The translations under genes were made by a program, and so were the position numbers. The notes below the pieces were generated by a model, which saw nothing but the letters and a program-made list of their open reading frames with translations, had not been told where the DNA came from and searched no databases. Source: Acidothermus cellulolyticus 11B (lineage in GTDB: Bacteria; Actinomycetota; Actinomycetes; Acidothermales; Acidothermaceae). From it: a stretch of 32,000 nucleotides of DNA. Position 1 is the stretch's first letter. The number at the start of each line of letters is the position of its first letter. The stretch covers positions 2,190,001 to 2,222,000 of the forward strand of contig NC_008578.1 in assembly GCF_000015025.1 (NCBI RefSeq), read 5' to 3'. Shown here one piece after another: positions 1 through 24,912 of this stretch.

Positions 1-1702
1 CGGAAATCGTCACGGGGCTGGCGACCGTCAGGGTGCTCGACGACGTCGGCGACGAAATCGTCACCGTCGGCGGCGTGGTGTCCGTGGATGGCGACGCCGG
101 CACCAGTCCGCTCATCAGCGTCTGAGGTTGTACGCCCATGTCCGCGAAAAGGTTCACTGTGGCCTGCTGCATGCGCGGGTCGGCAGGCGACGTCGTACCA
201 TCGTGATCGTCGTCAAGTCCCCACGCCCACTGCACCGTGCCGGCGCCGAAAACGAGCGCCCCGCTCGGTGCCCGATACAAGGTGAGACTGTGGGTGACCG
301 TGCCCTGCGCCACGGTGTTTCCGTAGTCAATCATTTTCTGTGGGACGGACTCGACGGTTGATGACAAGTCGATGAGGCCGGCGGGTCGGAAGCCGTTGTC
401 GACATCGGAGTCGAATTCGTATCCGAGGGTGTTGGGCGCCAAGGTCGCGGTCTGACCGGGACCAAGGCTGGCCACCGACGTGTTCCGCCAGATGCGATCC
501 CTGCTGTACGGGTACGGCACCTGAATGGCGAAGCCGCCGGTATTCGACATGTACATGGTGCCGCTCAACGCATTTTCCGGGTGATACCCGTCACCTTGCG
601 GATTGATCGGTGGGCCAAAACGCGGGTCCCGCCAGGTGGCGGTGGTCGTCGTCGGTTCCAACGGGTCGATGGGCCCGTTCGCCCAGGTCTCCTTGTAACT
701 GACCAGCGTGCGGTACGGCGTGTTCGAGCCGTCAACGCTGGGTTCCCACCGAGTCTTCCAATAAATTTCGTTGCCGCTGAAGAAGGCGAGATTGACGCCG
801 GCGTCGCGGGCCGCTTCGACGTTCGCACGCTGTTCGCCCGACCAGTACTCGTCATGTCCGACCGATAAGAAGATGCGATGGTTGAGGAGCAGGCTGCCGT
901 TGCGCGCAGTGTCAACGCCGGAAATGTAACTGACGTCGTATCCATTCCGCTCCAGGAAGCGGATCATCGGATATTCGTTGCTGAACAAGTAATCACGGCC
1001 GTCGTTGTCGCCCCGCGTCGAGAACGGCCGATTGTAGCTGATCTTGTATGCCCGGCCGTTGCTCCCGGTGTAGAAGTCCGCACCGCCGTAGGTGTTGTAC
1101 GCCTCCCAGGTGGTGTCCGACGTCTGGAAGACGATGTCGGAGTGGCTCGAGTCGTCGCGGACGACAAAGGGAATCTGACTCTGCCCGCCGGTGTCGGTCC
1201 GGGTGAGAACCGCCAGGTACACCCCGGAGACGGCCGTGGTTGGTACCGTCCAGGAGGCCGAGACGGCCCAGTCTCCGCAGTCGACCAACTGGGTGGCCGG
1301 ATCGGTGATGCAGGCCGGCTGATTCTGCGGCAAGGCCGCCGACGGCGTGATGCTCGCAATCTTGCGCGCTCCGTCGCCGCCATACCAGCCCAGGCGGTAA
1401 ATGTCGATCGTGTATGCGGACGCGTCGGTCGAAATTTTGAAGTACTCGGTCTGGCCGATGTTCACGCTCATGTCGGTGGCGAAACCCTGGATGGTCGGAT
1501 CGCCGACGCCGGTCACGTCCCAGACGCTCTCCGGGGTCCCCGGTTTGGAGTTCTCGCAGACGATCGGGTTGCTCCCCGGTCCGCACGGCGATGTCGCGGC
1601 GGAAGCCGCCGGCTGTGCAGCGAGCAGTCCTCCTGCTGCCAAAGCAGCCGCCGCGAACACCCGCGCCACGTGCAGCGACCTCGTCGTTATCCGCGCCATC
1701 AT
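1..1702 (-). CDS. Secreted protein with N,N-dimethylformamidase beta-subunit-like domain; 3' end runs off the window
   Basis: Not in the ORF track because there is no stop codon inside the window. My manual minus-strand translation from the ATG at 1702-1700 reads open to position 2. It starts MMARITTRSLHVARVFAAAALAAGGLLAAQPAASA, a signal-peptide-like N-terminus. It continues with protein-like motifs: DTTWEAYNTYGG, SVGHDEYWSGEQR, FFSGNEIYWKTRWE, GTVQWAWGLDDDHDG. I recall these from the DMFase large-subunit-like family. The ATG overlaps the upstream stop codon (ATGA, 1699-1702). Confidence 0.65.
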   Translation of the reverse strand, partial: MMARITTRSLHVARVFAAAALAAGGLLAAQPAASAATSPCGPGSNPIVCENSKPGTPESVWDVTGVGDPTIQGFATDMSVNIGQTEYFKISTDASAYTIDIYRLGWYGGDGARKIASITPSAALPQNQPACITDPATQLVDCGDWAVSASWTVPTTAVSGVYLAVLTRTDTGGQSQIPFVVRDDSSHSDIVFQTSDTTWEAYNTYGGADFYTGSNGRAYKISYNRPFSTRGDNDGRDYLFSNEYPMIRFLERNGYDVSYISGVDTARNGSLLLNHRIFLSVGHDEYWSGEQRANVEAARDAGVNLAFFSGNEIYWKTRWEPSVDGSNTPYRTLVSYKETWANGPIDPLEPTTTTATWRDPRFGPPINPQGDGYHPENALSGTMYMSNTGGFAIQVPYPYSRDRIWRNTSVASLGPGQTATLAPNTLGYEFDSDVDNGFRPAGLIDLSSTVESVPQKMIDYGNTVAQGTVTHSLTLYRAPSGALVFGAGTVQWAWGLDDDHDGTTSPADPRMQQATVNLFADMGVQPQTLMSGLVPASPSTDTTPPTVTISSPTSSSTLTVASPVTIS

Positions 1703-2862
1703 CGAACCGCTCCTGTCTCGTGAGCCAACGGCGAGCCATCGCCGGGTGATGTCTCACCGACGGTCAACGCCTCGCGAAGAGTGTCGATGACCACGTCACA
1801 CTGCGACGTCGTCATGCCCGGAAAGATCGGAAGGGAGAGAATCTGCGTCGCCGCCCGCTCCGCGACAGGAAAGTCACCCGCACGATAGCCCAATCCCACA
1901 TACCCGGGTTGCAGGTGCACTGGTATCGGGTAATGCACCGCGGCACCGATACCGGCTCGGTTCAACGCCGCAAGGACGGAGTCACGGCGCGGAATTCGGA
2001 TGACGTACAGGTGCCACACGTGTTCATTGCCCGGGCGGACCGTCGGCACCCGCACCTCGTCGATCTCAGCGAGCCGCTCGCTGTAGTATACCGCGATCTC
2101 TTGACGCAGGGCGTTCCAGTCGTCAAGCCGGCGCAATTTTTCGCGGAGTATCACCGCCTGCAGGGCGTCCAATCGGGAATTGAACCCGATATCCGGATGG
2201 TGGTACTTCCGCGCGCTTCCGTGATTGGCGAGCCGGCGCGCGTATCGGGCGAGCCCCTCGTCATCAGTGAGAACGGCTCCCCCGTCGCCGTAGGCTCCGA
2301 GATTCTTCCCTGGATAGAAGCTGGTCGCGGCGATATGCCCAAGACCGCCGGCACGGCGGCCGTCCAGTCGGGCGCCTTGGCACTGGGCGGCGTCTTCGAT
2401 GAGAGCGAGATTGTGTTTCTCCGCAATCTTCGCCAGGTCGCGCATCGGAGCGACCTGGCCGTACAAGTGCACGGCAATGACCGCCCTGGTACGCGGCGAG
2501 ATTGCCGCTTCCACCCCGCGTGGGTCGATGAGCAGGTACTCGTCGTCGCAATCGACAAGCCGGGGAATCGCACCCGCGCGCAGGACGGCTTCCACCGTGG
2601 CGACGAAAGTGTTGGTCGGCACGATGACCTCATCGCCGGGTCCGATATGCAGAGCGCGGAGAGCGATTTCGATCGCGTCGGTACCGTTGGCCACTCCGAC
2701 GCAATGCGTCACCTCGCAGTAGCGGGCAAAGTCCGCTTCGAATTCCTCGACGGCGGCACCTCCGATAAAAGCGCCGCGCCGCATGACATCGAGCAGCGTC
2801 GGCAAAACCTGCGGCTCGATGACACTGTGCTGCCACGTAAGGTCGACGAGCGGAATCGGCAT
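1699..2862 (-). CDS. DegT/DnrJ/EryC1/StrS-family PLP-dependent sugar aminotransferase (copy 2)
   Basis: Track ORF 1699..2994 trimmed to the internal ATG at 2862 (MPIPLVDLTWQH...), 2 nt after the upstream stop. N-terminus and length (387 aa) are typical of DegT. Family-like segments: GVANGTDAIEIAL, FYPGKNLGAYGDGG, HYPIPVHLQP. Confidence 0.9.
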   Translation of the reverse strand: MPIPLVDLTWQHSVIEPQVLPTLLDVMRRGAFIGGAAVEEFEADFARYCEVTHCVGVANGTDAIEIALRALHIGPGDEVIVPTNTFVATVEAVLRAGAIPRLVDCDDEYLLIDPRGVEAAISPRTRAVIAVHLYGQVAPMRDLAKIAEKHNLALIEDAAQCQGARLDGRRAGGLGHIAATSFYPGKNLGAYGDGGAVLTDDEGLARYARRLANHGSARKYHHPDIGFNSRLDALQAVILREKLRRLDDWNALRQEIAVYYSERLAEIDEVRVPTVRPGNEHVWHLYVIRIPRRDSVLAALNRAGIGAAVHYPIPVHLQPGYVGLGYRAGDFPVAERAATQILSLPIFPGMTTSQCDVVIDTLREALTVGETSPGDGSPLAHETGAVR

Positions 2863-2864
2863 GT

Positions 2865-3548
2865 TCACCCCGTCCTTACGAGTTCGACACCGAGCGGAGT
2901 GGTGAAACCGGCGCGCCGGGCCGGCGTGCCATACCAGATCTCGCCGGCAGGGACGTCCACCGTAACCACTGACCCCATCCCGACCAGCGCCCACGCGCCG
3001 ATCCGCAGGTTTTCCCGAACCAGCGCGCCAGCGCCGACGTAAGCGCCGGTGTCAATCTGCACCGAGCCGCCGAACGTCGCGCCGGCGCAAATCGTGGCGA
3101 AATCCGCGACGACGTCGTCGTGCGTGAAAACCGCACGCGGCATGACGGCGACGTGTGCGCCGAGGCGGACCGCCGCCGTGGCGACGACACCCGCCAGGAC
3201 GAGGCATCCAGCACCAAGAACCGTGTCGGCGGCCAAGCAGGCGCTGGGATGCACGACCGTCGCGTACCGTTCCGCCGGCAAGGAGAGGCGACGGGCAAGC
3301 CGGTAACGGCTGGAGAAGTCACTAGGCCGGCCGGTCGCGAGAAGCACCTGGGCCGTTTCCGGGATGCTGTCGGCGGTGATCGGTCCGAGGACCGGCACCC
3401 CGTCGATCACCGTACCGTGGCGGGTTGCGTCATCGTCGAGAAAGCCGAGGAGCTGCCACGTCGCGCGCTCGGCGTTCACGGCATGCACCGCCTGGACCGC
3501 CTCGCGGGCGAGCCCACCGGAGCCGGCAATGACGAGCGGCCGGGTCAT
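2865..3548 (-). CDS. NeuD/PglD-family hexapeptide-repeat sugar N-acetyltransferase
   Basis: ORF 2865..3587 trimmed to MTRPLVIAGSGGLAREA (ATG 3548), which forms an ATGA overlap with the upstream stop. Has an N-terminal Rossmann-like GSGG segment followed by a left-handed beta-helix C-terminus (IGAHVAV..., GGSVQIDTGAYVGAGALV). Confidence 0.85.
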   Translation of the reverse strand: MTRPLVIAGSGGLAREAVQAVHAVNAERATWQLLGFLDDDATRHGTVIDGVPVLGPITADSIPETAQVLLATGRPSDFSSRYRLARRLSLPAERYATVVHPSACLAADTVLGAGCLVLAGVVATAAVRLGAHVAVMPRAVFTHDDVVADFATICAGATFGGSVQIDTGAYVGAGALVRENLRIGAWALVGMGSVVTVDVPAGEIWYGTPARRAGFTTPLGVELVRTG

Positions 3549-4537
3549 GCGACCCTCACCGGAATGACACCCTCGGCCTGGAGCCACCGCACCAAGTCGT
3601 GCAAACCGTCAGCGAGGCTGATGCGGGCCTCAAAGCCGAGCAATTCCTTCGCCTTGCGCGTGCTCGCCAACCGCCGGGTGACGTTGTTGACCCGCCGTGC
3701 CGGGGCGAATTCCGGACGCAGATCGCTGCCCATCGCTGCGAGAAGGGCATCGGCCAGCTCGCGCAGACTGGTTTCCGTTCCGGAGGCGACATTAATCACT
3801 TCGTCGCTCACCGGAGCCGCAGCAGCAAGAAGGTTCGCCCGCGCCACATCCGCGACGTGCACGAAGTCCATGGTCTGCAATCCGTCGCCTTCGATGATGG
3901 GCGGCTCACCGGCGGCGATGCGTTTCGCCCAACGGATCAGTACTTCCGTATAGACGCCGAAGGCGTCCATGCGCGGGCCGTACACGTTGAAATACCGCAG
4001 CGCGACATACTTGAGCCCGTACATGTCGTTGAAGCTGCGTAGCAGCCCCTCGTTGAAGGTCTTGATGGCGCCGTACAGCGTTCGGTTGTGGTACGGATGG
4101 TGCGTTTCTTCCGTTGGGAAACTCTCCGCCAGCCCGTACACCGAAGCCGACGACGCGGCGACGACCTTGTCAACCCCGGCTGCAACGGCGGCCTCGACGA
4201 CATTGAACGTCCCCGTCGCCAGCACATCGAACGCAAGCCGTGGTTCTTCCGCACACTGCGTGATACGAATCGCCGCTTGGTGAAAGACAAGGTCCGTCCC
4301 GGCGACGGCGTCGCGGACCACCGCCGGATCCCGAATATCGCCCTCGATGACCTCAACCCGGCCGGACGCGCATGCGGCGACGAGATTCTCCCGACGACCG
4401 CGGACGAAATTGTCCAGCACCACGACCCGCGACGCACCGGCCGCTATGAGCTGGTCCACGATGGTCGAGCCGATCGTTCCAGCACCGCCCGTCACCAAGG
4501 CCCGACAACCGCGCAACGCGTCAACATCAGCAATCAC
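3545..4537 (-). CDS. NAD-dependent epimerase/dehydratase (extended SDR; UDP-sugar 4-epimerase or 4,6-dehydratase-like)
   Basis: 330 aa. VTGGAGTIGS nucleotide-binding motif near the N-terminus and a YGAIK catalytic YxxxK. GTG start overlaps the upstream stop by 4 nt. Confidence 0.9.
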   Translation of the reverse strand: MIADVDALRGCRALVTGGAGTIGSTIVDQLIAAGASRVVVLDNFVRGRRENLVAACASGRVEVIEGDIRDPAVVRDAVAGTDLVFHQAAIRITQCAEEPRLAFDVLATGTFNVVEAAVAAGVDKVVAASSASVYGLAESFPTEETHHPYHNRTLYGAIKTFNEGLLRSFNDMYGLKYVALRYFNVYGPRMDAFGVYTEVLIRWAKRIAAGEPPIIEGDGLQTMDFVHVADVARANLLAAAAPVSDEVINVASGTETSLRELADALLAAMGSDLRPEFAPARRVNNVTRRLASTRKAKELLGFEARISLADGLHDLVRWLQAEGVIPVRVA

Positions 4538-5703
4538 AACAGGCGCTCCCTACCACCGTATGCCGCCGGGTCTGCGCTCGGCCGCGATACATCCCCGGAA
4601 TCCTCCGCTTCGGCGGCTCCTGCCGCTCCAGCCGGCACCGGCTCCCGAGTCCGCCCGTCCCGCAGCGCAACCGGCGCTCCACCGCGTTCCAGGCTGCGCG
4701 ACGCCGCCTCGAGAATGTCGAGGATCCGCAGTCCACTCATACCGTCCGTCAGCGCCGGGCGTCCCTCCCGGATCGCGGCTGCAAATTCGCTGACCACTTC
4801 ACCCAGTGCTTCCCGTTCCACCAGCGCAGGTGCCACCATGTCTCCCGCCCGGTAGGAAACCAATGCGTCGCGTCGCTGATCCCCGTCCAGTTCGGTCGTG
4901 GCGCGAAGGTCGACGCCGCGGTCGAAGAGGGCAATACGGGTCACCGGATTGAGGTCGTCCCAGAGCAGAATCCGTCGCGACCCGCCGATCAGCATGGTCC
5001 GGATTTTCACCGGACTGAGCCAGTTCACATGGATGTGCGCGAGGCCGCCGCCCGGCAGGGCGAGACTGAGATACGCCAGACACGCCCGCCCCGCGCCAAT
5101 GGGATCGGCGCCGTGCACCGCCACCGAGATCGGACGAACCTCCGCAGGGAAAACGAAATCCATAATGGACAAGTCGTGCGGCGCGAGATCCCAAATGACG
5201 TCGACGTCACGCTGCACAAGACCAAGGTTTATCCGCACGGAGTCGAGATACTGGACAGCGCCAAGGGTCCCGCTTGCGATAATGTCCCGCATCTTGCGGA
5301 CCGCCGGCGTGTAGCAGTACGTGTGATCGCACATCAGCACGAGCCCGCGCTCGATCGCCATGGCGACGAGAATGGCCGCGTCGTCATAACTGGCGGCCAG
5401 CGGTTTCTCCACCAGTACGTGTTTCCCCGCCCGCAGCGCCGCCGCCGCAATCGGGAAATGCGTGGCAACGGGCGTCGCGACGATGACGGCGTCGGTCTGC
5501 GGATCCGTCAGCACGTCCTCGAGATTGTCCGTCACCAGGGTGTCGGAGAACCGGCCGGCCACCCGGCGCGCTCGGTCGACGTCGACGTCGCAGACCCAGC
5601 GAAGGCGGAATTCCGGACTCGCGAGAACGTTACGCACCAGATTGGGACCCCAGTACCCGGCTCCGACGACGGCGACGCCCAGTGGTTCTCTCGTCATCGG
5701 CAT
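4534..5703 (-). CDS. Gfo/Idh/MocA-family NAD-dependent sugar dehydrogenase (WbpB/WlbA-like candidate)
   Basis: 389 aa. N-terminus GVAVVGAGYWGPNLVRN is a Rossmann motif, and VEKPLA is typical of the family. An alternative start at M3 (5697) would give an ATGA overlap with the upstream aminotransferase stop. Confidence 0.88.
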   Translation of the reverse strand: MPMTREPLGVAVVGAGYWGPNLVRNVLASPEFRLRWVCDVDVDRARRVAGRFSDTLVTDNLEDVLTDPQTDAVIVATPVATHFPIAAAALRAGKHVLVEKPLAASYDDAAILVAMAIERGLVLMCDHTYCYTPAVRKMRDIIASGTLGAVQYLDSVRINLGLVQRDVDVIWDLAPHDLSIMDFVFPAEVRPISVAVHGADPIGAGRACLAYLSLALPGGGLAHIHVNWLSPVKIRTMLIGGSRRILLWDDLNPVTRIALFDRGVDLRATTELDGDQRRDALVSYRAGDMVAPALVEREALGEVVSEFAAAIREGRPALTDGMSGLRILDILEAASRSLERGGAPVALRDGRTREPVPAGAAGAAEAEDSGDVSRPSADPAAYGGRERLL

Positions 5704-6887
5704 GCCTCTCGGAGAACGTCGCGGACGGCGGTGATGACCCGCTCCTGCTCACCGTCCGTCATCGCGTGAAACAGCGGAAGGATGATGGAACGTGTCGTCA
5801 CGGTGTCGGTCACGGGTAGGGCGCGCGACGCCATTCCCGCATACGCCGGTTCACGATGCGCCGCCATGATGCCTCGGCGTGCAGATATGCCGGCATCGAG
5901 CAGTCGGCTCAGAAATTCCTCCTGCGAAATGTGGTAACGCCCGTCGGGCAGAATCCAGAATGACTGAAAGTTCGTCGTGCCATATGGCGGGTCGGCCACG
6001 GTTTGGAGACCCGGCATGTCGGCGAAGGCGGCAATGTAACGGCTGGCACGTTCACGGCGGCGTGCCACGATGGCGTCGAGCTTTTCAAGTTGCGCGAGCC
6101 CGATAGCGGCTTGGACGTCGGTCATCCGGTAGTTGTAGCCGAGCTCGAGATAACGTTCCAGGACGGGCCGGCGGAGCTCATGGCGCTGCGCGGCCGAGAC
6201 ACTCATCGCGTGTTCACGGAGACGCCGTAGGCGGACGGCGAAATCCTCACGGCTGGTGAGAATCATGCCCCCTTCGCCGGTCGTAATAATCTTCCGCGGA
6301 TGAAACGAGAGTACGGCGAGATCGGAATGCGCTCCGATCGGCCGCCCGCGGTACGTCGAACCGATGGCACAGGCGGCATCTTCAATGAGGACGGCTCCTC
6401 GCGTGGCACATAACGCGGCGACAGCGTCGACGTCCGCCGGTGTTCCCGCCTGGTGGACAAGAAGGACGGCAACAGTCCGCGGTGTCCAGGCGCTCTCGAT
6501 GGTCTGAGGCGTGAGATTCAACGTGCCCGGATCGACGTCGGCGAACACTGGTGTCGCACCGCAATACCGGACGGCATTTGCCGTGGCGATAAAGGATAAC
6601 GAGGGAACGATGACGTCGTCACCGGGGCCGACTCCTGCCGCCAGCAACGCAAGGTGCAAGCCTGTCGTGCAGGATGACACCGCAATGCCGTGCTCGGCCC
6701 CGAGCCGTCGGGCGACCGCGCGTTCAAACTCTGCAACACGCGGGCCCTGCGCCACCCAGCCGGAGAGGACCACCTCAGCGGCCGCCTGCGCCTCGGCCTC
6801 ATCGAGCCACGGCTTCATCACCGGTATGAGCGCCGCCGAGTCCGAGGCGTTCAGACCGGTGATGGTCGCACCGCCCGTGTGCTTCAT
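5694..6887 (-). CDS. DegT/DnrJ/EryC1/StrS-family PLP-dependent sugar aminotransferase (copy 1; WbpE/PglE-like candidate)
   Basis: ORF 5694..6968 trimmed to MKHTGG... (ATG 6887) so that it does not overlap the upstream gene end at 6923. Shows the LIPVMKPWLDEAE DegT-type N-terminus and SFHPRKIITTGEGG around the PLP-lysine region. Confidence 0.87.
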   Translation of the reverse strand: MKHTGGATITGLNASDSAALIPVMKPWLDEAEAQAAAEVVLSGWVAQGPRVAEFERAVARRLGAEHGIAVSSCTTGLHLALLAAGVGPGDDVIVPSLSFIATANAVRYCGATPVFADVDPGTLNLTPQTIESAWTPRTVAVLLVHQAGTPADVDAVAALCATRGAVLIEDAACAIGSTYRGRPIGAHSDLAVLSFHPRKIITTGEGGMILTSREDFAVRLRRLREHAMSVSAAQRHELRRPVLERYLELGYNYRMTDVQAAIGLAQLEKLDAIVARRRERASRYIAAFADMPGLQTVADPPYGTTNFQSFWILPDGRYHISQEEFLSRLLDAGISARRGIMAAHREPAYAGMASRALPVTDTVTTRSIILPLFHAMTDGEQERVITAVRDVLREACR

Positions 6888-6922
6888 GGCATCCCGCCTA
6901 TCGGACGTCCCAAGCTCCGCCG

Positions 6923-8452
6923 TCAATACGCACCGGACCCACGGACGACAGCAAAGGCGGTCTTCCACAAAATCATGAGATCCAACCAGAAGGACCAGTT
7001 CTCGACGTACCAGAGGTCAAGCCGCACGGAGGTCTGCCAATCGAGGTCAGACCGGCCGCTGATTTGCCAGAGCCCGGTGAGGCCCGGCTTGACGAGGAGG
7101 CGGCGTTTCGCTTCCGGCCCATACATGGCGACTTCGCGGGCCAACGGCGGCCGAGGACCGACGAGCGACATATGACCGAGAAGAACGTTGACCAATTGCG
7201 GCAATTCATCGAGGGAATACCGCCGGAGGAATCGGCCGACCGGCGTCACCCGCGGATCGTCGACGAGTTTGAACAGCACACCAGTAGCACCATGCTTGTT
7301 CTTGTCCAGCAACTCGGTGAGCCGGTGCTCAGCGTCGGCGTACATGGACCGGAATTTGTACATCCGGAAAGACTTGCCGCCCTTGCCGACCCGCTGCTGG
7401 CAGAAGAATGCACCGCCGTCGCTCGTTGCAACCACCGCAATCGCGACGGCGAGGAGAAGCGGGCTGAGAACGATAAGGGCGATCGCCGCCGCGAACCGGT
7501 CGAACGCTTCTTTCAAGACACGGCGGAATCCGTGAAATTCGGGGGCTTCCACGTGCAGGAGCGGCAAGCCCGCGAGCGGCCGGATGTGAATGCGTGGACC
7601 CGTGACATCCACGATGGTGGGAGCGACGATGAGATCGACTCCTGCCGCTTCGAGATCCCATCCGAGTTTTCGGAGCTTGGGTCCGCACAATTCCGGGCAC
7701 GGCAGGACGGCGACGGCCGCGGCGTCTACCGCGACGACCGCCCGCGTCACCGACTCCAGATCGTCGATGACCGGTACACCGGCGGCGTCCAGCCGATGGT
7801 GCGAACCGGCCTTCCCACCGGGAACGCAGGCACCGACGACGAAGAGACCCGCGTACGCTTCCCGCCGCATCGCCTCCGCAAGCTCAGCCGCAGTCGCATC
7901 GTGTCCGACAATCAGCACCCGTTGCAGGTGGCGGCCTTGCCGTCGCTGGAAATGCAGCCACTTTCGCGCACCGTAACGCGTCACGAGGGTCGCGGTCATC
8001 GCGCCGGGCACGGCAAAGAGAGCGACGCCGCGGCCGCCGAGCGAGGACGTCGCATACCCGGCGGTCGCAATGCACGCGGTGAGGCCGAGTCCCGCATGCA
8101 CGACGCGGCGATACTCCTCAGACCCCAGCCCGAGAAAGCGGGGTTCGTACGCGCGCAGCAACGCCAAGGTCGCCGGCCAGCCCAAGCCAAGCGCGACGAC
8201 CTGGAGCCAGGCTGCTCGATCGACCCGGCCGGCGTACCCGGATGAATACACGAGAACCGCAAGAGCCGCGATGACCCCTTCCGCTACGGCAAGCACCCGG
8301 CCATAGCGACGCAGGAAGCTGAGCCGGTCCCGGACGGCACGCCGGCTCCGCGTTGTACGCAACACCCGATCGGTCCGACGCGGAAGCGTCGAGACCTCAT
8401 CAAGAACGACCACGCCCCCCACCTTCCGAAACTGTGTGACGTCTTGCCTCAA
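6923..8452 (-). CDS. Polyprenyl-phosphate glycosyl-1-phosphate transferase (bacterial sugar transferase, WbaP/CpsE-type initiating enzyme)
   Basis: 509 aa. Hydrophobic N-terminal half. C-terminal domain carries the family signatures SLVGPRPPL, PGLTGLWQISGRSDL and LDLWYVENWSFWLDLMILWKT. The track start is a TTG at 8452; in-frame GTG codons lie just downstream, so the start is uncertain. Confidence 0.88.
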   Translation of the reverse strand: MRQDVTQFRKVGGVVVLDEVSTLPRRTDRVLRTTRSRRAVRDRLSFLRRYGRVLAVAEGVIAALAVLVYSSGYAGRVDRAAWLQVVALGLGWPATLALLRAYEPRFLGLGSEEYRRVVHAGLGLTACIATAGYATSSLGGRGVALFAVPGAMTATLVTRYGARKWLHFQRRQGRHLQRVLIVGHDATAAELAEAMRREAYAGLFVVGACVPGGKAGSHHRLDAAGVPVIDDLESVTRAVVAVDAAAVAVLPCPELCGPKLRKLGWDLEAAGVDLIVAPTIVDVTGPRIHIRPLAGLPLLHVEAPEFHGFRRVLKEAFDRFAAAIALIVLSPLLLAVAIAVVATSDGGAFFCQQRVGKGGKSFRMYKFRSMYADAEHRLTELLDKNKHGATGVLFKLVDDPRVTPVGRFLRRYSLDELPQLVNVLLGHMSLVGPRPPLAREVAMYGPEAKRRLLVKPGLTGLWQISGRSDLDWQTSVRLDLWYVENWSFWLDLMILWKTAFAVVRGSGAY

Positions 8453-8848
8453 GTTCCCGAGACAATTCGCCGATGCCTTCCATGTAACGGAGGTCCTGCG
8501 GACCGTTCCGTTACTGGACCCACCCCAGGCCCTAGCTCACTGTACGATACTTGGCCCCTTCTGCGAAGAGGAACCGACGCATCCACGGGTAAACTCACCC
8601 GTTCGTCGCAGACGAATGCCGCTAAGCGTCGTGAGAGCAGCACAAACCGGAATAGGCTGAGTATCGGCTGATTTCCGATTTGTCGCATTTCGCAGCATTC
8701 GCGGGCAGCGGTGACGGCCTGAGCGCGGCAACGACGTCTCCCGGGCGTATGCATCAGGCTCGCGGGCGGATGCACCGACCTTCAGCGCGGCGGTAGCGTC
8801 CTCGCGCGCATCGGTACGGCCGCGGTAATGACCCGAAGTCAGGACAGA

Positions 8849-9424
8849 CTACTGCAATTGCTGACAGGTCGGACAGGTCAGTACAGCCGGCGGCTCAACC
8901 GCATCACTGATTTTCTGGCCGCAGCGGCACACCCAGCCACGATGACGGGCCGGGTTGCCAGCGACAAGCTGGTGCGGAGCGACGTCCCGGGTTACCACAG
9001 CGCCGGCGGCCACCATCGCCCACTCGCCAATCTCGTGACCACAGACGATCACTGCGCCGCCGCCGATCGACGCCCCCCGCCGGACAATCGTCGGTACGAC
9101 GGTCCACTCGGTGCTGCCGGCACGCGGGCGCAAGTCGTTGGTGAAGACAGCGCTCGGACCGACGAAGACATCATCCTCAAGGGTCACGCCCCGGTATACC
9201 GAGACGTTGTTCTGAATCTTGACGCGGTCGCCGATGCGGACGCCCTCGTCCACGAAGACGTTCTTCCCGATGTTGCATCCGACGCCAATCGATGCGCCGG
9301 TCCGCACGTGTACCTGACGCCAGAGCCGAGTGTCGCGGCCGATCTGCGCACCGGGTTCGACCTCCGCCGTCGGATGGCAGAAGAAGGAAGTTTCGGGACT
9401 CTCGGTCACCGATGAATCGCTCAT
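8849..9424 (-). CDS. Left-handed beta-helix sugar N-acetyltransferase (WbpD/QdtC/WxcM-like)
   Basis: 191 aa. FCHPTAEVEPGAQIGRDTRLWRQVHV...IGKNVFV...VKIQNNVSVYRGVTLEDDVFVGPSAVFTND...GNPAR matches the pattern I recall for UDP-2-acetamido-3-amino-sugar N-acetyltransferases. Has an extra C-terminal CxC...CxxC tail. Its ATG overlaps the lhgO stop (ATGA, 9421-9424). Confidence 0.85.
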   Translation of the reverse strand: MSDSSVTESPETSFFCHPTAEVEPGAQIGRDTRLWRQVHVRTGASIGVGCNIGKNVFVDEGVRIGDRVKIQNNVSVYRGVTLEDDVFVGPSAVFTNDLRPRAGSTEWTVVPTIVRRGASIGGGAVIVCGHEIGEWAMVAAGAVVTRDVAPHQLVAGNPARHRGWVCRCGQKISDAVEPPAVLTCPTCQQLQ

Positions 9425-10659
9425 TGTGACTCCACGGCTGGTACGTCGTCCGTCGAAAGAAGCAGCCGGGCCAGCTCTTCGCCGATCGGGATGCTGGACG
9501 TCGCGGCAGGAGACGGCGCATTGCGCACCGCGACCACCTTGCCGACGCGACGCACGATGAAATCATCGACCAGACGACCGGCGGCGTCCATCGCTTGCGC
9601 ACGCACTCCGGCCCGTGCCCGGATCAGATCCCGGGCCGTAATACCGGGCAGATACGCGGCGACGTCGGCAGCAAAACGGCGTCGGCTGACGGCCCGCCAC
9701 ATTTCCGCGCAACCAACCCGCCAATACCTGCGGGCAAACCGGAGGAATCCCGGCCAACCGATCGCATCGAGCACCTCGTCCGGCCGCACGGTCCGGGCGC
9801 GGTATCCCTCACGTGCCATGGCAAGGACGGCGTTCGGCCCGACCAGCAGCTCTCCACCGACCGTCGGCGTAATGTGCACGCCGAGAAAAGGCAGACCCGG
9901 ATCCGGCACCGGGTAAATCAACCCGCGCACGCGAGTGCGCCACTCAGGCGTCAATCGGTAATAGTCGCCTCGGAACGGAACAATCCGTGGCTCCGGTGCA
10001 TCTCCGGCCATGACGGCGAGCCGGTCGCCATACAAGCCGGCGCAAATCAGCACTCGACCCGCAACAACGCGATCCCCGTTTCTCCCGGTGAGAACCACGG
10101 TGTCCTGGCGCTGCTCGATGTGCTGCACGGGAAAAGCCGTCATTATCCGGCCGCCGGCGGCCCGGATGTCGTCGGCAAAACTTCGGGCAATCGCCGGAAA
10201 ATCGGTGATCGCCGTCCGCGGCGAGTGCAACGCGGCTACTCCGCGGGCCGTCGGTTCGATACGCCGCAGCTCATCGGCGTCGATCAGGCGGACGTCAGGG
10301 ACGCCGTTGGCACACGACCGTCGATACAACTCTTCAAGACGCGGAATCTCGGCGTCGCGAAGCGCCACCACGACTTTGCCGCACTCCACGTACGGCAAGT
10401 GACGTTCGGCGGTGTATGCGGCAAGCGCGGCCCGGCCCGCCGTGCAGAACCGCGCCTTCAACGAACCCGGGGCATAGTAGACACCCGCGTGAACGACGCC
10501 GCTGTTGCGGCCGCTCTGGTGGCACGCGAGACGCTCTTCCTTCTCAAGAACCACCAGCGAGAGCGTCGGCTCCCGCTGGAGCACGGCCCGGGCCGCCGCG
10601 AGTCCGACAATCCCGCCGCCGATGACGGCGACGTCCGCCGACGCCTGCGCCGTGCTCAT
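9421..10659 (-). CDS. lhgO: L-2-hydroxyglutarate oxidase/dehydrogenase (FAD-dependent)
   Basis: 412 aa. VAVIGGGIVGLAAA FAD motif. CHQSGRNSGVVHAGVYYAPGSLKARFC, PFRGDYYRL, LIYPVPDPGLPFLGVH, GVRAQA and NAPSPAATSS track E. coli LhgO (YgaF) closely, as I recall that sequence. Confidence 0.88.
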   Translation of the reverse strand: MSTAQASADVAVIGGGIVGLAAARAVLQREPTLSLVVLEKEERLACHQSGRNSGVVHAGVYYAPGSLKARFCTAGRAALAAYTAERHLPYVECGKVVVALRDAEIPRLEELYRRSCANGVPDVRLIDADELRRIEPTARGVAALHSPRTAITDFPAIARSFADDIRAAGGRIMTAFPVQHIEQRQDTVVLTGRNGDRVVAGRVLICAGLYGDRLAVMAGDAPEPRIVPFRGDYYRLTPEWRTRVRGLIYPVPDPGLPFLGVHITPTVGGELLVGPNAVLAMAREGYRARTVRPDEVLDAIGWPGFLRFARRYWRVGCAEMWRAVSRRRFAADVAAYLPGITARDLIRARAGVRAQAMDAAGRLVDDFIVRRVGKVVAVRNAPSPAATSSIPIGEELARLLLSTDDVPAVESQ

Positions 10660-10677
10660 CGCATCACCCGCACCGCC

Positions 10678-11541
10678 TCAGTATGCCCGCCGCGACGTGT
10701 CGTCCGCTGACCACATAGCAGCTCGGCCGCGCCATCGACGCCAGGCGGCCAACGCGCGTGCCGCAATCGTCAGCGTGACGAAGACACCGGCTTGGACGAG
10801 CGAGACACGGCGAGCCAGCACGAGCCGGCGGACGGCGGGCGGTTCGGCGGCCGTACGCGGCCAGCGGATGTCGAGTTCGCGATTCCCGTTCACAATCCGC
10901 GCACGCCGGCGTACCAGAGCGGACACCGTCCGAGGCGCCCGGATGACCGAGCGGCCCGCCGCGACGACGCGTTCCGACGCTGCAAATTGGCGCGCAACAA
11001 AACCGTCATCGCTGAGAACATCCGGCCACTGCGAGATCCGCGCCGCTCCCGCGCGGTTCACCGCGAAAATTCCCGCACCCGACCCATCAGGGGCGGCATG
11101 CTGCCGTGCCGACCAGACGGCGTAATACGCGCGCACCAGCCGGGACGAGCCGGCTGCATCGACCTCGCCGCACACGACGCCGAGCCGCGGCATGTCACCC
11201 GCCACAGCATCCCGCACGTTCCGGAGCGTTGTCACGTCGACGAGCACATCGGCGTCCAGATAAATGCGCACATCCGCACGCTCAACCAGCGGCTCGTCCT
11301 CCGCTTTCCGCAGGGCGGCTATCTTGGACGCCACCGGAATTTCCCGAACCTCGACCGGCCTGCCGGTCTGCTCTCCGGTTGAGCGCGCCGCCTCGGCGGT
11401 GCCGTCCGAGCAACCATTGCACACCACGAGAACCTGGAATTCGCCCGGCGCACTCTGCGGCAGGAAAGCACGCAAGGTCCGCTCGATGACCGCCGCTTCG
11501 TTGTGCGCCGCCATGACAATGGTTGCTGCGGGCTCCGCCAT
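10678..11541 (-). CDS. Family 2 glycosyltransferase
   Basis: 287 aa. N-terminus TIVMAAHNEAAVIERTL...VLVVCNGCSDGT and a downstream DAD motif (YLDADVLV) are typical of GT2. Confidence 0.85.
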   Translation of the reverse strand: MAEPAATIVMAAHNEAAVIERTLRAFLPQSAPGEFQVLVVCNGCSDGTAEAARSTGEQTGRPVEVREIPVASKIAALRKAEDEPLVERADVRIYLDADVLVDVTTLRNVRDAVAGDMPRLGVVCGEVDAAGSSRLVRAYYAVWSARQHAAPDGSGAGIFAVNRAGAARISQWPDVLSDDGFVARQFAASERVVAAGRSVIRAPRTVSALVRRRARIVNGNRELDIRWPRTAAEPPAVRRLVLARRVSLVQAGVFVTLTIAARALAAWRRWRGRAAMWSADDTSRRAY

Positions 11542-17054: not shown

Positions 17055-18095
17055 TCACCCCGCGGCGGGCTGATCGGTTCCGCCCGCGGTCATTTCGTCC
17101 GCGCTCGCTTGACCGCGAACCGATCCGTGCGGAACCACGGCATGCTCAGCCGGAATCGTGCCGAGGATCCCCTTCTGGTAATCCTCGAATGCTTGCAGCA
17201 CTTCGGCTTTCGTGTTCATGACGAACGGTCCGTACATTGCCACCGGCTCGCGAATCGGTTCGCCGCCGAGGACAAGGACGTCAAAGTTCGGACTGCGGCT
17301 CTCTTGCTGTTTGCTGGCCGATACCGTAATGGCGTCCCCAGCGCCGAAGACGGCCAATTGACCGTAGCGCAACGGATGCCGGCCCGCGCCGACGGCGCCG
17401 AAACCGCCGAGGGCGTACACGAGGGCGTTGAAATGCCGCGGCCACGGAATTGTCACCGACGCGCCTGCGGCAAGCGTCACGTGGAGCAAGGCGATCGGTG
17501 TGTGGGTGATTCCCGGGCCTCGAAATCCGTCAACCTCGCCCGCGATGATACGAAGGAGCGCACCGCCGTCCGGCGACGCGACGAGCGACACCGCACTGGC
17601 CCGGATGTCTTGGTAGCGCGGTGGAGCGAATTTCAACCGGCGCGGCAGATTGACCCAGAGCTGAAAACCGTGGAACAGGCCGCCGCTCGCGACCAGGTAT
17701 TCCGGCGGCCGTTCGATATGCAGGATCCCGCGACCGGCTGTCATCCATTGCGTATCACCGTTCGTGATAAGTCCGCCGCCGCCGTTGGAATCGTGGTGCT
17801 CAAAAATGCCGTCAATCATGTATGTGACGGTCTCGAATCCGCGGTGCGGGTGCCACGGCGTACCTTTCGGTTCACCCGGCGCGTATTCGACTTCGCCCAT
17901 CTGGTCCATGTGGACGAAGGGATCAAGCGCGGCGAGGCTCACGCCCGCAAACGCCCGACGGACCGGGAAGCCTTCGCCCTCAAGCCCGGACGGCGCTGTT
18001 GTGATCGAAACCACCGGACGGTCGCGCTCGACCGCCGGATCGACGTGGCGAAGCCGGGGCAGCGCAAGAATGTTGTCAACGGTGACAGCGGGCAT
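17055..18095 (-). CDS. Pirin-family protein (bicupin)
   Basis: Track ORF 17055..18149 trimmed to the ATG at 18095 (MPAVTVDN...), preceded by a GGAGG RBS. PWHPHRGFETVTYMIDG and GDTQWMTAGRGILHIE are the pirin cupin motifs. Confidence 0.9.
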   Translation of the reverse strand: MPAVTVDNILALPRLRHVDPAVERDRPVVSITTAPSGLEGEGFPVRRAFAGVSLAALDPFVHMDQMGEVEYAPGEPKGTPWHPHRGFETVTYMIDGIFEHHDSNGGGGLITNGDTQWMTAGRGILHIERPPEYLVASGGLFHGFQLWVNLPRRLKFAPPRYQDIRASAVSLVASPDGGALLRIIAGEVDGFRGPGITHTPIALLHVTLAAGASVTIPWPRHFNALVYALGGFGAVGAGRHPLRYGQLAVFGAGDAITVSASKQQESRSPNFDVLVLGGEPIREPVAMYGPFVMNTKAEVLQAFEDYQKGILGTIPAEHAVVPHGSVRGQASADEMTAGGTDQPAAG

Positions 18096-18181
18096 GGTGT
18101 CCTCCACGACGAGACTCACTGCCGGGAACGGCGCCGGCGGCCCTTGCATTCCCGATCTCGCATATGGCCGTGCTGATTGAT

Positions 18182-18381: not shown

Positions 18382-18608
18382 CGGTGGCGCTTGACCTGCC
18401 ATCGCCGCAACGACTGACACAGACTCAACCGGCTGGTTGAGATGCCGCGGGTCCGACATTGAGATGACCCGCCACACGTTCCGTCAAGGCGAGAGATTTG
18501 GATATTACGCAGCCTATGCCGTTACGAGCCGGCCGAATCGTTATCGGCCTCTTCCACTGGCTCCCAAGCGGTATTTCCTGGTCGTTTTGCGCGAAGAAGA
18601 CAGCTCTT

Positions 18609-20116
18609 TGTTTAAAGCCTGTCTCAATCCCCCGGCTAAAATGGGCGTACCGCGGAAACAGCTATCGCGCATGCTGGGGAGCCTGTCTCAATCCCCCGGC
18701 TAAAATGGCAGGCTTGACGGGCTCTGCTCGCGGGAAGCTGGGGAGCCTGTCTCAATCCCCCGGCTAAAATGGAAAGCACGGCGGGCTGCCGGCCTCACCC
18801 GCTGGGGAGCCTGTCTCAATCCCCCGGCTAAAATGGCGCGTCAGCCGCGGCACGATTACCGTACGCTGGGGAGCCTGTCTCAATCCCCCGGCTAAAATGG
18901 ATCTGGCCGAGTGCTCGTGGTCACGACGCTGGGGAGCCTGTCTCAATCCCCCGGCTAAAATGGCGACCAACGGAAGATCGCCGATATGATAGCTGGGGAG
19001 CCTGTCTCAATCCCCCGGCTAAAATGGCAATCATCCCACGGCTGCGCACCCCACGGCTGGGGAGCCTGTCTCAATCCCCCGGCTAAAATGGATCGGCTTG
19101 GTGCGGACCGGCGGGTTTTGCTGGGGAGCCTGTCTCAATCCCCCGGCTAAAATGGGCAGATTGATGCTAAAGCTGGGGAGATTGCTGGGGAGCCTGTCTC
19201 AATCCCCCGGCTAAAATGGGCAGATTGATGCTAAAGCTGGGGAGATTGCTGGGGAGCCTGTCTCAATCCCCCGGCTAAAATGGCTCCGGGTGGTATTCCC
19301 GCCGGGACCTGGCTGGGGAGCCTGTCTCAATCCCCCGGCTAAAATGGCCAACCGCGTACATGGTCGAGGTTTGCAGCTGGGGAGCCTGTCTCAATCCCCC
19401 GGCTAAAATGGGAAACTGTGAAAAACGGTGCCTTTGCCAGCTGGGGAGCCTGTCTCAATCCCCCGGCTAAAATGGTCCGCACCGTCGACTCGTACGCCTG
19501 CAGGCTGGGGAGCCTGTCTCAATCCCCCGGCTAAAATGGAGATCCTTGAGTGCGTGCCCGGTGCCGCGCTGGGGAGCCTGTCTCAATCCCCCGGCTAAAA
19601 TGGCGCCCGCGCCGCCTGAGCTGGTCGAATTGCTGGGGAGCCTGTCTCAATCCCCCGGCTAAAATGGTGCTCGAGCACCGGTAGCAGCTGTGTCTGCTGG
19701 GGAGCCTGTCTCAATCCCCCGGCTAAAATGGGATCCCACACCCAGCACCAGAACGCGCGGCTGGGGAGCCTGTCTCAATCCCCCGGCTAAAATGGCCACC
19801 CGGCCACCGTAGCGCGCGGCGGAGGCTGGGGAGCCTGTCTCAATCCCCCGGCTAAAATGGTCCATGTCAATTCAGTGGTGGCCGACCTGCTGGGGAGCCT
19901 GTCTCAATCCCCCGGCTAAAATGGCCGACCGAGCGAAACGCCCGGTGCGAGAGCTGGGGAGCCTGTCTCAATCCCCCGGCTAAAATGGTTGATGGCGTGC
20001 GATATTCCCCGGTGCGGCTGGGGAGCCTGTCTCAATCCCCCGGCTAAAATGGAGCGGGACTTGAACCCGCGACCAGCGGAGCTGGGGAGCCTGTCTCAAT
20101 CCCCCGGCTAAAATGG
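18609..20116 (+). CRISPR. CRISPR array: 24 x 36-bp repeats (GCTGGGGAGCCTGTCTCAATCCCCCGGCTAAAATGG), 23 spacers
   Basis: Repeat starts: 18609 (degenerate), 18673, 18737, 18801, 18865, 18928, 18992, 19056, 19120, 19184, 19248, 19312, 19376, 19440, 19504, 19568, 19632, 19696, 19760, 19825, 19889, 19953, 20017, 20081. Twenty-one spacers are 28 nt, one is 27 nt (18901-18927) and one is 29 nt (19796-19824). The strand is assigned from tracrRNA complementarity and the -10-like box in each repeat. Confidence 0.97.
18637..18642 (+). promoter_or_regulatory. -10-like hexamer TAAAAT inside the repeat (positions 29-34); recurs in all 24 repeats
   Basis: TAAAAT fits the TANNNT actinobacterial -10 consensus and ends 2 nt before each spacer. 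The coordinates give the first copy as an example. This placement is analogous to the repeat-embedded promoters established for Neisseria and Campylobacter type II-C arrays. Confidence 0.4.
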
Positions 20117-20121
20117 AGGAC

Positions 20122-20156
20122 GGCTGAGATCCCTGGGTTGACCTGGGATCTCAGCC
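20122..20156. terminator. Perfect 12-bp hairpin between the last repeat and the cas2 stop (possible bidirectional terminator)
   Basis: GGCTGAGATCCC (20122-20133) pairs with GGGATCTCAGCC (20145-20156) across an 11-nt loop. It is followed by TTGTTG on the plus strand and, after 8 nt, by a TTTT run on the minus strand. Confidence 0.5.
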
Positions 20157-20163
20157 TTGTTGA

Positions 20164-20490
20164 TCATGGAAAAATCGCTAGTTGCTGCGGTGGATCTTCC
20201 GGCGGAACGAGCCTTTCGCCAACGTAGCAGAGTGCGCGGGCCCATTCGTGATCTGAGACGGGGATCACCCGCAAGACGCCCCCCGGCGGGACGACCGCTC
20301 CGGCTGCGGATCCCACCCATCGGAACCCTGCCCCATTGATCATGTACTTCGCGTAGACACTGAGCTGAACTCGGCTGAAGCCAAGTTCCAGGAGATGATG
20401 TCGGTAGCGGTTCGCGTCCCGCCGCTGCTCCCTGGTCTGGGTAGGTAGATCGAAAGCTGCGATGGCCCACACCGGTTCGTCCTTAAGCAT
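20164..20490 (-). CDS. cas2: CRISPR-associated endoribonuclease Cas2
   Basis: 108 aa. Cas2-like N-terminus (WAIAAFDLPTQTREQRRDANRYRHHLLELGFSRVQLSVYAKY). Overlaps the cas1 end by 8 nt and lies directly next to the array. Confidence 0.93.
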   Translation of the reverse strand: MLKDEPVWAIAAFDLPTQTREQRRDANRYRHHLLELGFSRVQLSVYAKYMINGAGFRWVGSAAGAVVPPGGVLRVIPVSDHEWARALCYVGERLVPPEDPPQQLAIFP

Positions 20491-24783: not shown

Positions 24784-24912
24784 GGTCGGATCAGCTCCTC
24801 GTCCGTACTCAACGCCTTTGATGATCAGTTGCAAGCTCACGATAGCGACATGGACCGACATAATGCACGGATTTTTTGAGACGCAATACCTTGCGATCAG
24901 AGCGGCGCGATG

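Follow-up and report, generated by a model that had tools for sequence, protein, structure and literature searches.

Why would the gene for an L-2-hydroxyglutarate (L-2-HG) oxidase, an enzyme of metabolite repair and glutarate catabolism, be coupled to genes of an amino-sugar pathway? The question is raised by a 32,000-nt stretch of Acidothermus cellulolyticus 11B (contig NC_008578.1, positions 2,190,001 to 2,222,000; hereafter the window), in which lhgO lies within a minus-strand gene run at window positions 1-11541. An earlier reading of this DNA (the original prediction) had proposed that LhgO returns 2-hydroxyglutarate (2-HG) to 2-oxoglutarate on behalf of a WbpB/WlbA-like dehydrogenase of the Gfo/Idh/MocA family (GFO) encoded in the same run, and all the genes that it named are present on the minus strand where it had placed them. 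The evidence presented here inclines us, by a small measure, to the view that lhgO does have a role in the pathway, namely to recycle the L-2-HG that a 2-oxoglutarate-dependent sugar-nucleotide oxidase of the cluster would form, with an epimerase-like short-chain dehydrogenase/reductase (SDR) favoured over GFO as that oxidase.

The assignment of lhgO as an L-2-HG oxidase gene was well founded. Its product scored 502 bits against the NCBIfam equivalog model NF008726 (L-2-hydroxyglutarate oxidase; cut-off 299) over residues 9-397, and 359 bits against Drosophila L2HGDH (PDB 8w75). In the Drosophila structure, Ser88, His92, Tyr289, Leu299, His302 and Arg393 bind 2-oxoglutarate or L-2-HG, and the L-specificity of that enzyme, which is inactive on D-2-HG, has been demonstrated (PMC10726252). 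All six residues (Drosophila numbering) occur in the window's LhgO, and they are invariant in 30 homologues, whether glycan-linked or not. By family and residues, the window's LhgO is thus predicted to be an orthodox L-2-HG oxidase; its nearest named relative, from an Acidothermus sp. metagenome-assembled genome (MAG), is 73% identical. It shares protein family and substrate residues with the L2HGDH enzymes of repair or glutarate catabolism, and the difference lies in the company that the gene keeps. In E. coli the context is csiD-lhgO-gabDTP, and elsewhere we found lhgO in catabolic surroundings, beside a succinate-semialdehyde dehydrogenase gene (on plasmids), a GntR regulator gene or an MFS transporter gene, whereas here, and in Microbacterium, Deinococcus and Verrucomicrobia, its coupled partners are genes for nucleotide sugars or glycans and not those for the catabolism of glutarate or GABA.

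The coupling itself was confirmed by reading the sequence. The lhgO ATG follows the end of a family 2 glycosyltransferase (GT2) gene after an 18-nt spacer, and the lhgO TGA stop overlaps by 4 nt the ATG of a hexapeptide-repeat N-acetyltransferase gene (cacaATGAgcg). This acetyltransferase had been called WbpD/QdtC-like, and it proved to be of the WlbB/WbpD type: its best solved relative, 3mqg/3mqh (presumably Bordetella WlbB), scored 177 bits and QdtC-type structures followed at 68 bits, while the score against the NeuD/PglD model (90 bits) was under the cut-off of 160.8. The description of the whole run as one glycan operon held only in part. Although lhgO does lie between the GT2 gene and the other glycan genes, a non-coding gap of ~400 nt splits the run (8453-8848), and GT2-lhgO-acetyltransferase is therefore probably one transcription unit and PGT-DegT1-GFO-SDR-PglD-DegT2-giant protein (PGT, polyprenyl-phosphate glycosyl-1-phosphate transferase) another. 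The sole open reading frame (ORF) in the gap, at 8449-8775, had a non-coding-like GC content by codon position, a measure that we dropped for gene calling because sense and antisense frames were not separable at the GC content of the window (~65%). A consensus scan for promoters and terminators was uninformative. In the second unit, the DegT1 and GFO genes overlap by 10 nt, the GFO stop and SDR start share GTGA, and ATGA overlaps join SDR to PglD and DegT2 to the giant-protein gene.

Adjacency of lhgO to glycan genes extends well beyond this one genome, so that the refuting condition set with the original prediction, an adjacency confined to this genome, does not apply. In the window's LhgO lineage (60-99% identical proteins), seven of seven contexts were glycan loci, and lhgO lay a few kb from pth wherever this could be determined. 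In a 65%-identical relative, PGT-lhgO-acetyltransferase, again with a 4-nt overlap, is followed by GFO-SDR-DegT-PglD-DegT-giant protein; at other loci of the lineage the sugar genes are of quite other kinds (cytidylyltransferase-like, SDR, C-methyltransferase and RmlC-like). The LhgOs of Mycobacteriales MAGs (59-60% identity) and 24 of 26 GTDB loci (46-57%) were in non-glycan contexts, with exceptions in Microbacterium (L035) and a Verrucomicrobiia MAG (L022). In the Microbacterium locus lhgO comes after a WlbB-like gene and overlaps it by ATGA, the reverse of the order in the window, and the pair is divergent from a giant protein-GFO-SDR-DegT-PglD run. Microbacterium sp. SCN 70-27 and a JGI contig are arranged alike (subclade L035, L118, L119); in M. 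capsulatum and Glutamicibacter, lhgO is located elsewhere. Because the Microbacterium lhgO groups with the native Micrococcales clade, its pairing with the acetyltransferase gene is best read from the sequences as an independent juxtaposition. Co-transfer of lhgO and the module between the window's lineage and Microbacterium was considered and rejected, as the lhgO genes fall into their own taxonomic clades and the gene orders are opposite.

A different arrangement was found when plasmids were searched by tblastn. A cassette of overlapping genes in the order rfbF-lhgO-SDR1-rmlC-DRL-like oxidoreductase is present in Deinococcus aetherius, D. aquaticus and D. taeanensis, and the same lhgO-SDR1 adjacency, found by a reciprocal SDR1 search in D. 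ficus, makes four Deinococcus species. The Verrucomicrobiia MAG holds rfbF-lhgO-SDR1-RmlC-SDR2 with all genes overlapping. The cassette components matched glucose-1-phosphate cytidylyltransferase (449 bits), LhgO (588), RmlC (183) and the DRL-like family (243; PDB 3upl), and the LhgOs of the Deinococcus cassettes keep all six substrate residues. Within the window's own lineage, homologues of the cassette's rfbF and SDR1 (39-51% identity) lie 3-9 kb from lhgO at two loci (L002, L003), and rfbF only was seen at a third (L009).

On a plasmid of Gemmobacter aquarius (L132, 3859-4980), a 373-aa DAO flavoprotein of the Bp3253 type (386 bits to PDB 3dme, 31% identity to the window's LhgO) is encoded two genes ahead of rfbF-SDR1; rmlC and the gene of a DRL/SAF oxidoreductase adjoin. 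Bp3253 conserves all L2HGDH substrate residues (PMC10726252), and the Gemmobacter protein may be a functional analogue of LhgO. Two L-2-HG-oxidase-like families thus accompany one cassette, LhgO in Deinococcus and Verrucomicrobia and the Bp3253 type in Gemmobacter. Judged by gene content and order, these loci show that the nucleotide-sugar operons of at least four lineages took up an orthodox lhgO or a Bp3253-type substitute. The lineages are that of the window within the actinobacteria, Microbacterium, Deinococcus (Verrucomicrobia having a similar cassette) and, for the Bp3253 type, Gemmobacter. Glycan-operon lhgO was seen in 4 lineages among ~40 independent contexts, for which a rough expectation under random placement is well under one.

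The sugar operons concerned hold epimerase-like SDRs, or GFO, that would have to carry out a net oxidation. SDR1 has the motifs SSCSVYG and YxxxK and lacks the dehydratase acid/base pair. In Leisingera aquaemixtae (L131, 7001-9343), SDR1 is fused to a C-methyltransferase (Methyltransf_13/23/14) in a 780-aa protein encoded directly after rfbF, which implies that the putative SDR1 product is a keto-sugar substrate for C-methylation. SDR1 and the window SDR are followed by enzymes that require a 4-keto sugar, namely RmlC-like epimerases, the fused C-methyltransferase of Leisingera or the 4-aminotransferase-like DegT. The lack of a recognisable 4,6-dehydratase from the cassette of the Deinococcus plasmids and the Verrucomicrobiia MAG suggests a CDP-hexose route by net C4 oxidation. 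The window SDR likewise carries epimerase-type S...YxxxK motifs (SSASVYG and YGAIK) and is devoid of the 4,6-dehydratase acid/base pair, and its best PDB matches were 6wjb/6wj9 (158 bits) and UDP-hexose/UDP-HexNAc 4-epimerases. Among ~80 related loci, none had an SDR of the dehydratase type in the module.

A precedent for such an oxidase exists. Campylobacter jejuni Cj1427 (MlghA) is described as the initiating C4 oxidase of GDP-manno-heptose, which 'requires alpha-ketoglutarate', and as 'a unique ping-pong dehydrogenase', after which a C3/C5 epimerase and a C4 reductase act (PMC7949155). The succession in the Cj1427/Cj1430/Cj1428 heptose pathway (non-dehydrating C4 oxidase, RmlC-like 3,5-epimerase, C4 reductase) is the logic of the rfbF-lhgO-SDR1-rmlC-reductase cassettes. 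It differs from the window in that the window's 4-keto sugar would go to an aminotransferase and that the nucleotide would probably be UDP or CDP rather than GDP. In the work of Huddleston et al. 2020, Cj1427 reportedly co-purifies with NADH that 2-oxoglutarate re-oxidises, with L-2-HG as the reported by-product, and it reportedly oxidises L-2-HG back to 2-oxoglutarate. The capsule locus of C. jejuni is not known to contain a gene for a 2-HG oxidase.

By analogy, the epimerase-like SDR would be the likelier source of L-2-HG in the window and GFO the second candidate, because the sole SDR precedent, Cj1427, reportedly has the L stereochemistry and the sole GFO precedent, WbpB, makes D-2-HG. If Cj1427 does form the L enantiomer, the stereochemical objection that WbpB raises falls, provided that the source is an SDR of the Cj1427 kind. 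The neighbouring genes suggest two predicted branches of oxidation, transamination and acetylation, one at C3 through GFO, DegT2 and the WlbB-like enzyme and the other at C4 through SDR, DegT1 and PglD. The best solved relatives of DegT1 were ArnB (268 bits) and perosamine synthetase (244 bits), and those of DegT2 were QdtB (349 bits), DesV-type enzymes (338 bits) and WbpE (296 bits). GFO was nearest to the archaeal UDP-GlcNAc 3-dehydrogenase model NF040723 of NCBIfam (132 bits, cut-off 450), and its best PDB matches were 6nor and 7bvj, which are probably GenD2 and GnnA, respectively. These nearest curated or solved relatives, GnnA/GnnB, the archaeal 3-dehydrogenase and GenD2/GenS2 of gentamicin synthesis, share the chemistry of oxidation at C3 followed by transamination.

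In the mechanism that we propose, the SDR (as a putative C4 oxidase), GFO (as a putative C3 oxidase) or both would hold NAD(H) tightly. The product of the SDR would go to the ArnB-like DegT1 and the PglD-like acetyltransferase, and that of GFO to the WbpE-like DegT2 and the WlbB-like acetyltransferase. The NADH of the oxidase would be re-oxidised by 2-oxoglutarate, released by the two aminotransferases, and L-2-HG would be formed. LhgO, co-expressed with the cell-surface amino-sugar pathway through the GT2-lhgO-acetyltransferase unit, would turn this dead-end product back to 2-oxoglutarate and pass the electrons to quinone or O2. On balance, the sugar would be oxidised irreversibly and 2-HG would not accumulate.

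Several observations weigh against this proposal. The use of 2-oxoglutarate by the SDR or GFO, the stereochemistry of the 2-HG and the identity of the sugar are all things that we infer. The window SDR is only 26% identical to SDR1. The Deinococcus SDR1 in turn has 6vo6/6vo8 (presumably Cj1427) as its best solved relative at only 79 bits, and 6vo6 was missing from the PDB matches of the window SDR listed down to 95 bits. In addition, lhgO in cis was absent from many SDR1 cassettes, including those of Leisingera, Tsukamurella and rhizobia; in the rhizobia it lies elsewhere on the replicon.

The same holds for GFO. Streptomyces, Actinoplanes, Micromonospora and soil metagenomes hold many homologues of it (58-70% identity), and a tblastn census of 80 metagenomic loci and two genomes showed a widespread module, GFO-SDR-DegT1-(PglD)-DegT2, with or without a WlbB-like gene, GT2, PGT and a giant DMFA2_C/DUF4082 protein. 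The original prediction had suggested a search for co-occurrence of lhgO with WbpB/WlbA-like dehydrogenase genes in glycan clusters. In the neighbourhoods of the GFO genes, lhgO was absent in 79 of the 80 metagenomic modules and in those of Streptomyces and Actinoplanes. At the remaining locus (L044) it stands alone beyond L25-pth, outside any sugar operon, and we rejected lhgO as a regular member of the GFO module. No residues distinguished the GFOs of lhgO-linked loci; only a few conservative changes were seen. Because most GFO modules and many SDR1 cassettes lack lhgO in cis, a 2-HG oxidase, if one is needed, would usually be supplied in trans. A survey of the accessory genes of GFO loci, which was not exhaustive, found no other 2-hydroxyacid dehydrogenase or flavoprotein (e.g. 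D2HGDH); the recurrent ones encoded glycosyltransferases, polysaccharide deacetylase, an ABC transporter and a flippase, with a UDP-sugar dehydrogenase in four loci. No gene of the UDPG_MGDP_dh family (WbpA-type UDP-GlcNAc 6-dehydrogenase) was found among the cluster genes of the window; a family member occurs in 4 related loci. GT2 homologues (35-38% identity) flank the GFO module in ~10 related loci.

Position along the chromosome gives a further reason for caution. Upstream of the GT2 gene come a phosphopantetheinyl transferase gene, pth, the L25 gene, prs, glmU, tRNA-Gln and a pirin gene, and in the window's lineage lhgO always lies a few kb from glmU-prs-L25-pth, whatever the glycan genes, a position that fits simple positional inheritance. 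The strongest rival explanation, which we nevertheless think unlikely, builds on this: lhgO would be a housekeeping gene of metabolite repair or catabolism, long resident beside glmU-prs-L25-pth, and rearrangements of a variable glycan island at the same spot would have brought it under common transcription with no specific role in the pathway. It may also be a leftover of an earlier rfbF/SDR1 cassette that has since been replaced. Homologues of 60-65% identity located 1-8 kb from pth beside differing sugar sets, the rarity of lhgO among GFO modules, its catabolic contexts elsewhere and the lack of any specialisation in the LhgO protein all agree with such a bystander. However, the acetyltransferase/lhgO pair with its 4-nt overlap arose independently in Microbacterium, far from pth, and for a gene placed at random the rough chance of adjoining the single WlbB-like gene is ~0.001 per lineage, or ~0.03 over the ~30 lineages sampled. 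Also against the bystander explanation are the lhgO that is internal to a cassette kept in four Deinococcus species and a Verrucomicrobiia MAG, and the second L-2-HG-oxidase-like family that joined the cassette in Gemmobacter.

A still less probable explanation, nested within the reading that we prefer, is the original prediction in its strict form, where GFO is a WbpB-type ping-pong dehydrogenase and the sole source of 2-HG. The cluster does encode GFO, a DegT2 of WbpE-like type and an acetyltransferase of WlbB-like type, lhgO is coupled to a 3-N-acetyltransferase gene in two lineages, and WbpB sets a precedent: the P. aeruginosa enzyme has tightly bound NADH and reduces 2-oxoglutarate to D-2-HG, and a D-2-HG dehydrogenase mutant makes less O-antigen, a coupling of WbpB to D2HGDH that was published in 2021 (PMC8651671). 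The window shares with P. aeruginosa WbpB/WbpE/WbpD and D2HGDH (PA0317) the WbpE-like (DegT2) and WbpD/WlbB-like genes, and the logic of that system is one in which 2-oxoglutarate re-oxidises the NADH of a 3-dehydrogenase and a 2-HG dehydrogenase is needed for normal O-antigen. It differs in its product, which is D-2-HG, in its recycler, which belongs to another protein family and is encoded at an unlinked locus, and in its dehydrogenase, of which the window GFO is not a homologue beyond the family motif.

The last difference is clear from BLASTP. Against P. aeruginosa WbpB (query verified as 100% identical to PDB 3oa2), GFO gave 32 bits over 32 residues around EKPL only, and WbpB (3oa2, 3o9z) was absent among the top 60 PDB matches of GFO. 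Because only this stretch aligns, GFO is placed outside the 2-oxoglutarate-dependent WbpB/Thermus subfamily by sequence comparison, and its designation as a WbpB-like dehydrogenase had to be given up. The general statement that WbpB and WlbA reduce 2-oxoglutarate is correct for WbpB but not for Bordetella WlbA: the Bordetella and Chromobacterium WlbA enzymes follow a sequential rather than a ping-pong mechanism without 2-oxoglutarate (PMC10622841). In the wider family, the sugar 3-dehydrogenase GenD2 was assayed on free NAD+/NADP+, without recycling by 2-oxoglutarate, and if the window GFO behaves likewise it yields no 2-HG. Further arguments against the strict form are that WbpB makes D-2-HG, on which L2HGDH-type enzymes are inactive, that the Deinococcus, Verrucomicrobia and Gemmobacter cassettes have neither this GFO family nor an aminotransferase, and that lhgO-linked GFOs lack a residue signature. 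The aminotransferase next to GFO, which had been taken for a WbpE-type partner that directly follows the dehydrogenase, is indeed adjacent, but it precedes GFO in transcription and is nearest to ArnB; the WbpE/QdtB-like enzyme is DegT2, beyond the range first considered. What survives of the proposed amino-sugar route is a plausible 3-oxidation by GFO, 3-transamination by DegT2 and 3-N-acetylation by the WlbB-like enzyme, and the general idea of dedicated 2-HG recycling within the operon gained support from the recurring linkages even as the WbpB-type source was lost.

We regard indirect support of the pathway as very improbable. LhgO would then clear L-2-HG that arises in side reactions and inhibits the two aminotransferases, or would donate electrons locally to the quinone pool, and no enzyme of the cluster would make 2-HG stoichiometrically. 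The two DegT aminotransferases, the reported inhibition of transaminases and of WbpB by D-2-HG (PMC8651671) and a eukaryotic precedent for L2HGDH as a local quinone reductase (2026 preprint) lend it some weight, yet the lhgO-containing rfbF-SDR1-rmlC cassettes have no aminotransferase, and the central 2-oxoglutarate pool is generally known to dwarf the flux of a glycan pathway. That LhgO has acquired a new substrate (a sugar, a polyol phosphate or an acyl group carried by the glycan) is scarcely credible and was rejected: the family is related to type 2 glycerol-3-phosphate oxidase (130 bits), but the equivalog score is far over its cut-off and the six residues that hold the substrate by its C1 carboxylate, C2 hydroxyl and C5 carboxylate do not vary between glycan-linked and other homologues.

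A broader form of the preferred reading, in which LhgO recycles L-2-HG for a sugar oxidase of its own operon, is offered tentatively, and we hold it to be less probable than even. Oxidases that retain NADH (SDR1/Cj1427-kind SDRs and perhaps this GFO family) would pass hydride to 2-oxoglutarate, and LhgO or a Bp3253-type enzyme of the same operon would regenerate 2-oxoglutarate and deliver the electrons to the respiratory chain. This relay would operate in at least four lineages and four phyla (Acidothermus/Frankiales-related bacteria, Microbacterium, Deinococcus and Verrucomicrobia, with the Bp3253 type in Gemmobacter), and the module of the window would supply a sugar of the 2,3,4-triacetamido type to the surface glycan with which the giant protein is associated.

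The concept of recycling for D-2-HG and WbpB, as well as sugar oxidases that depend on 2-oxoglutarate, were already known. The original prediction had known of no description of the linkage, and a literature search that combined lhgO or L-2-HG oxidase with polysaccharide, cytidylyltransferase, gene-cluster and MocA topics agreed with this, as it found no paper on lhgO in glycan operons; a dedicated L-2-HG oxidase within the operon appears to be undescribed. Ping-pong sugar dehydrogenases such as WbpB and Cj1427 are regarded as oddities, and what becomes of their 2-HG has been studied for D-2-HG in Pseudomonas alone. If the proposal is true, lhgO and Bp3253-type genes would be a genomic marker for 2-oxoglutarate-using SDR and GFO sugar oxidases, coupling to the quinone pool would explain the irreversible net oxidation of the nucleotide sugar, and L-2-HG oxidase would have a biosynthetic role beyond metabolite repair and glutarate catabolism. 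The loci also point to a widespread, uncharacterised surface-glycan module of actinobacteria, GFO-SDR-DegT-PglD-DegT with a giant secreted protein, and the carriers of glycan-linked lhgO include cultivable organisms (Microbacterium, Deinococcus). The features of the window and of the related loci are collected in Table 1.

Table 1. Features of the window and of related loci (L numbers); strand is given for the window where recorded
Feature	Position	Strand	Basis or remark
GT2-family glycosyltransferase	10678-11541	-	Pfam Glycos_transf_2; first gene of GT2-lhgO-acetyltransferase unit
lhgO, FAD-dependent L-2-hydroxyglutarate oxidase/dehydrogenase, 412 aa	9421-10659	-	NCBIfam NF008726 equivalog, Pfam DAO
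WlbB/WbpD-like hexapeptide-repeat sugar 3-N-acetyltransferase, 191 aa, left-handed beta-helix	8849-9424	-	Hexapep domains; 3mqg/3mqh similarity
Non-coding gap of ~400 nt, acetyltransferase gene to PGT gene; probable internal promoter region	8453-8848	-	Sequence reading
Polyprenyl-phosphate glycosyl-1-phosphate transferase (PGT, priming enzyme)	6923-8452	-	TIGR03025 402 bits; Pfam Bac_transf
DegT1, 4-aminotransferase-type (ArnB/perosamine-synthase-like) sugar aminotransferase	5694-6887; start uncertain (6887 or 6815)	-	Pfam DegT_DnrJ_EryC1 372 bits
GFO, Gfo/Idh/MocA NAD-dependent sugar dehydrogenase, putative nucleotide-sugar 3-dehydrogenase, not WbpB-type	4534-5703	-	Pfam GFO_IDH_MocA
Epimerase-like extended SDR; candidate 2-oxoglutarate-dependent C4 oxidase	3545-4537	-	Pfam Epimerase
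PglD/NeuD-type sugar N-acetyltransferase	2865-3548	-	TIGR03570 184 bits, cut-off 160.8
DegT2, WbpE/QdtB-like sugar 3-aminotransferase	1699-2862	-	PDB matches QdtB, DesV-type, WbpE
Secreted giant DMFA2_C-domain protein, N-terminal part (567 codons), cut by left window edge	1-1702	-	Signal-peptide-like N-terminus; Pfam DMFA2_C 362 bits
Cas9, 1164 aa	21367-24861	-	
Cas1	20483-21520	-	
CRISPR array, ~24 repeats, 64-nt period	~18600-20120		
lhgO cassettes (Deinococcus plasmids, Verrucomicrobiia MAG)	L124 7160-12083; L126 7162-12125; L127 7157-12086; L022 8630-13092		
Giant-protein homologues	L116 15300-18596; L117 17108-20761; L035 3275-8986; L118 3449-9187		

The giant secreted protein encoded at the end of the gene run belongs to a group of 1100-1900 aa whose homologues carry DMFA2_C, DUF4082, Big_5 and Big_7 domains. 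In the window, in Streptomyces, Actinoplanes and Microbacterium and in many soil contigs, its gene lies after or beside the GFO-SDR-DegT module. The protein may be what the glycan is attached to, or else an enzyme that processes the glycan; the literature searched for DUF4082 held nothing relevant.

Other observations were made around lhgO in related genomes. At one locus of the window's lineage (L002, 6548-9823), a lasso-peptide-like set (Asn_synthase, Transglut_core3, PqqD and a 40-aa ORF) lies between PGT/ABC genes and lhgO. In Mycobacteriales MAGs (L005, 10001-15153; L006, 10001-14043), the genes after lhgO encode a GH25 muramidase and a pirin. The window's pirin gene (17055-18149) is 64-67% identical to the Mycobacteriales pirins and lies ~6.4 kb from lhgO beyond glmU, and it may be a remnant of an older lhgO synteny. 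On a linear plasmid of Streptomyces sp. NBC_01343 (L123, 2518-9104), lhgO is the last gene of a run that encodes an aminotransferase, an ATP-grasp enzyme, an Ldh-family oxidoreductase, a VOC protein and a methyltransferase; the run looks like a small-molecule pathway, and its Ldh-family enzyme could also make a 2-hydroxyacid.

Elsewhere in the window, a type II CRISPR-Cas locus occupies 18600-24861. The region at 26842-30059, unrelated to the lhgO finding, holds a trehalose-6-phosphate-synthase-like GT20 gene (26842-28401), a gene of the amine-oxidase/FAD family (28326-30059) and an EamA-type transporter gene.

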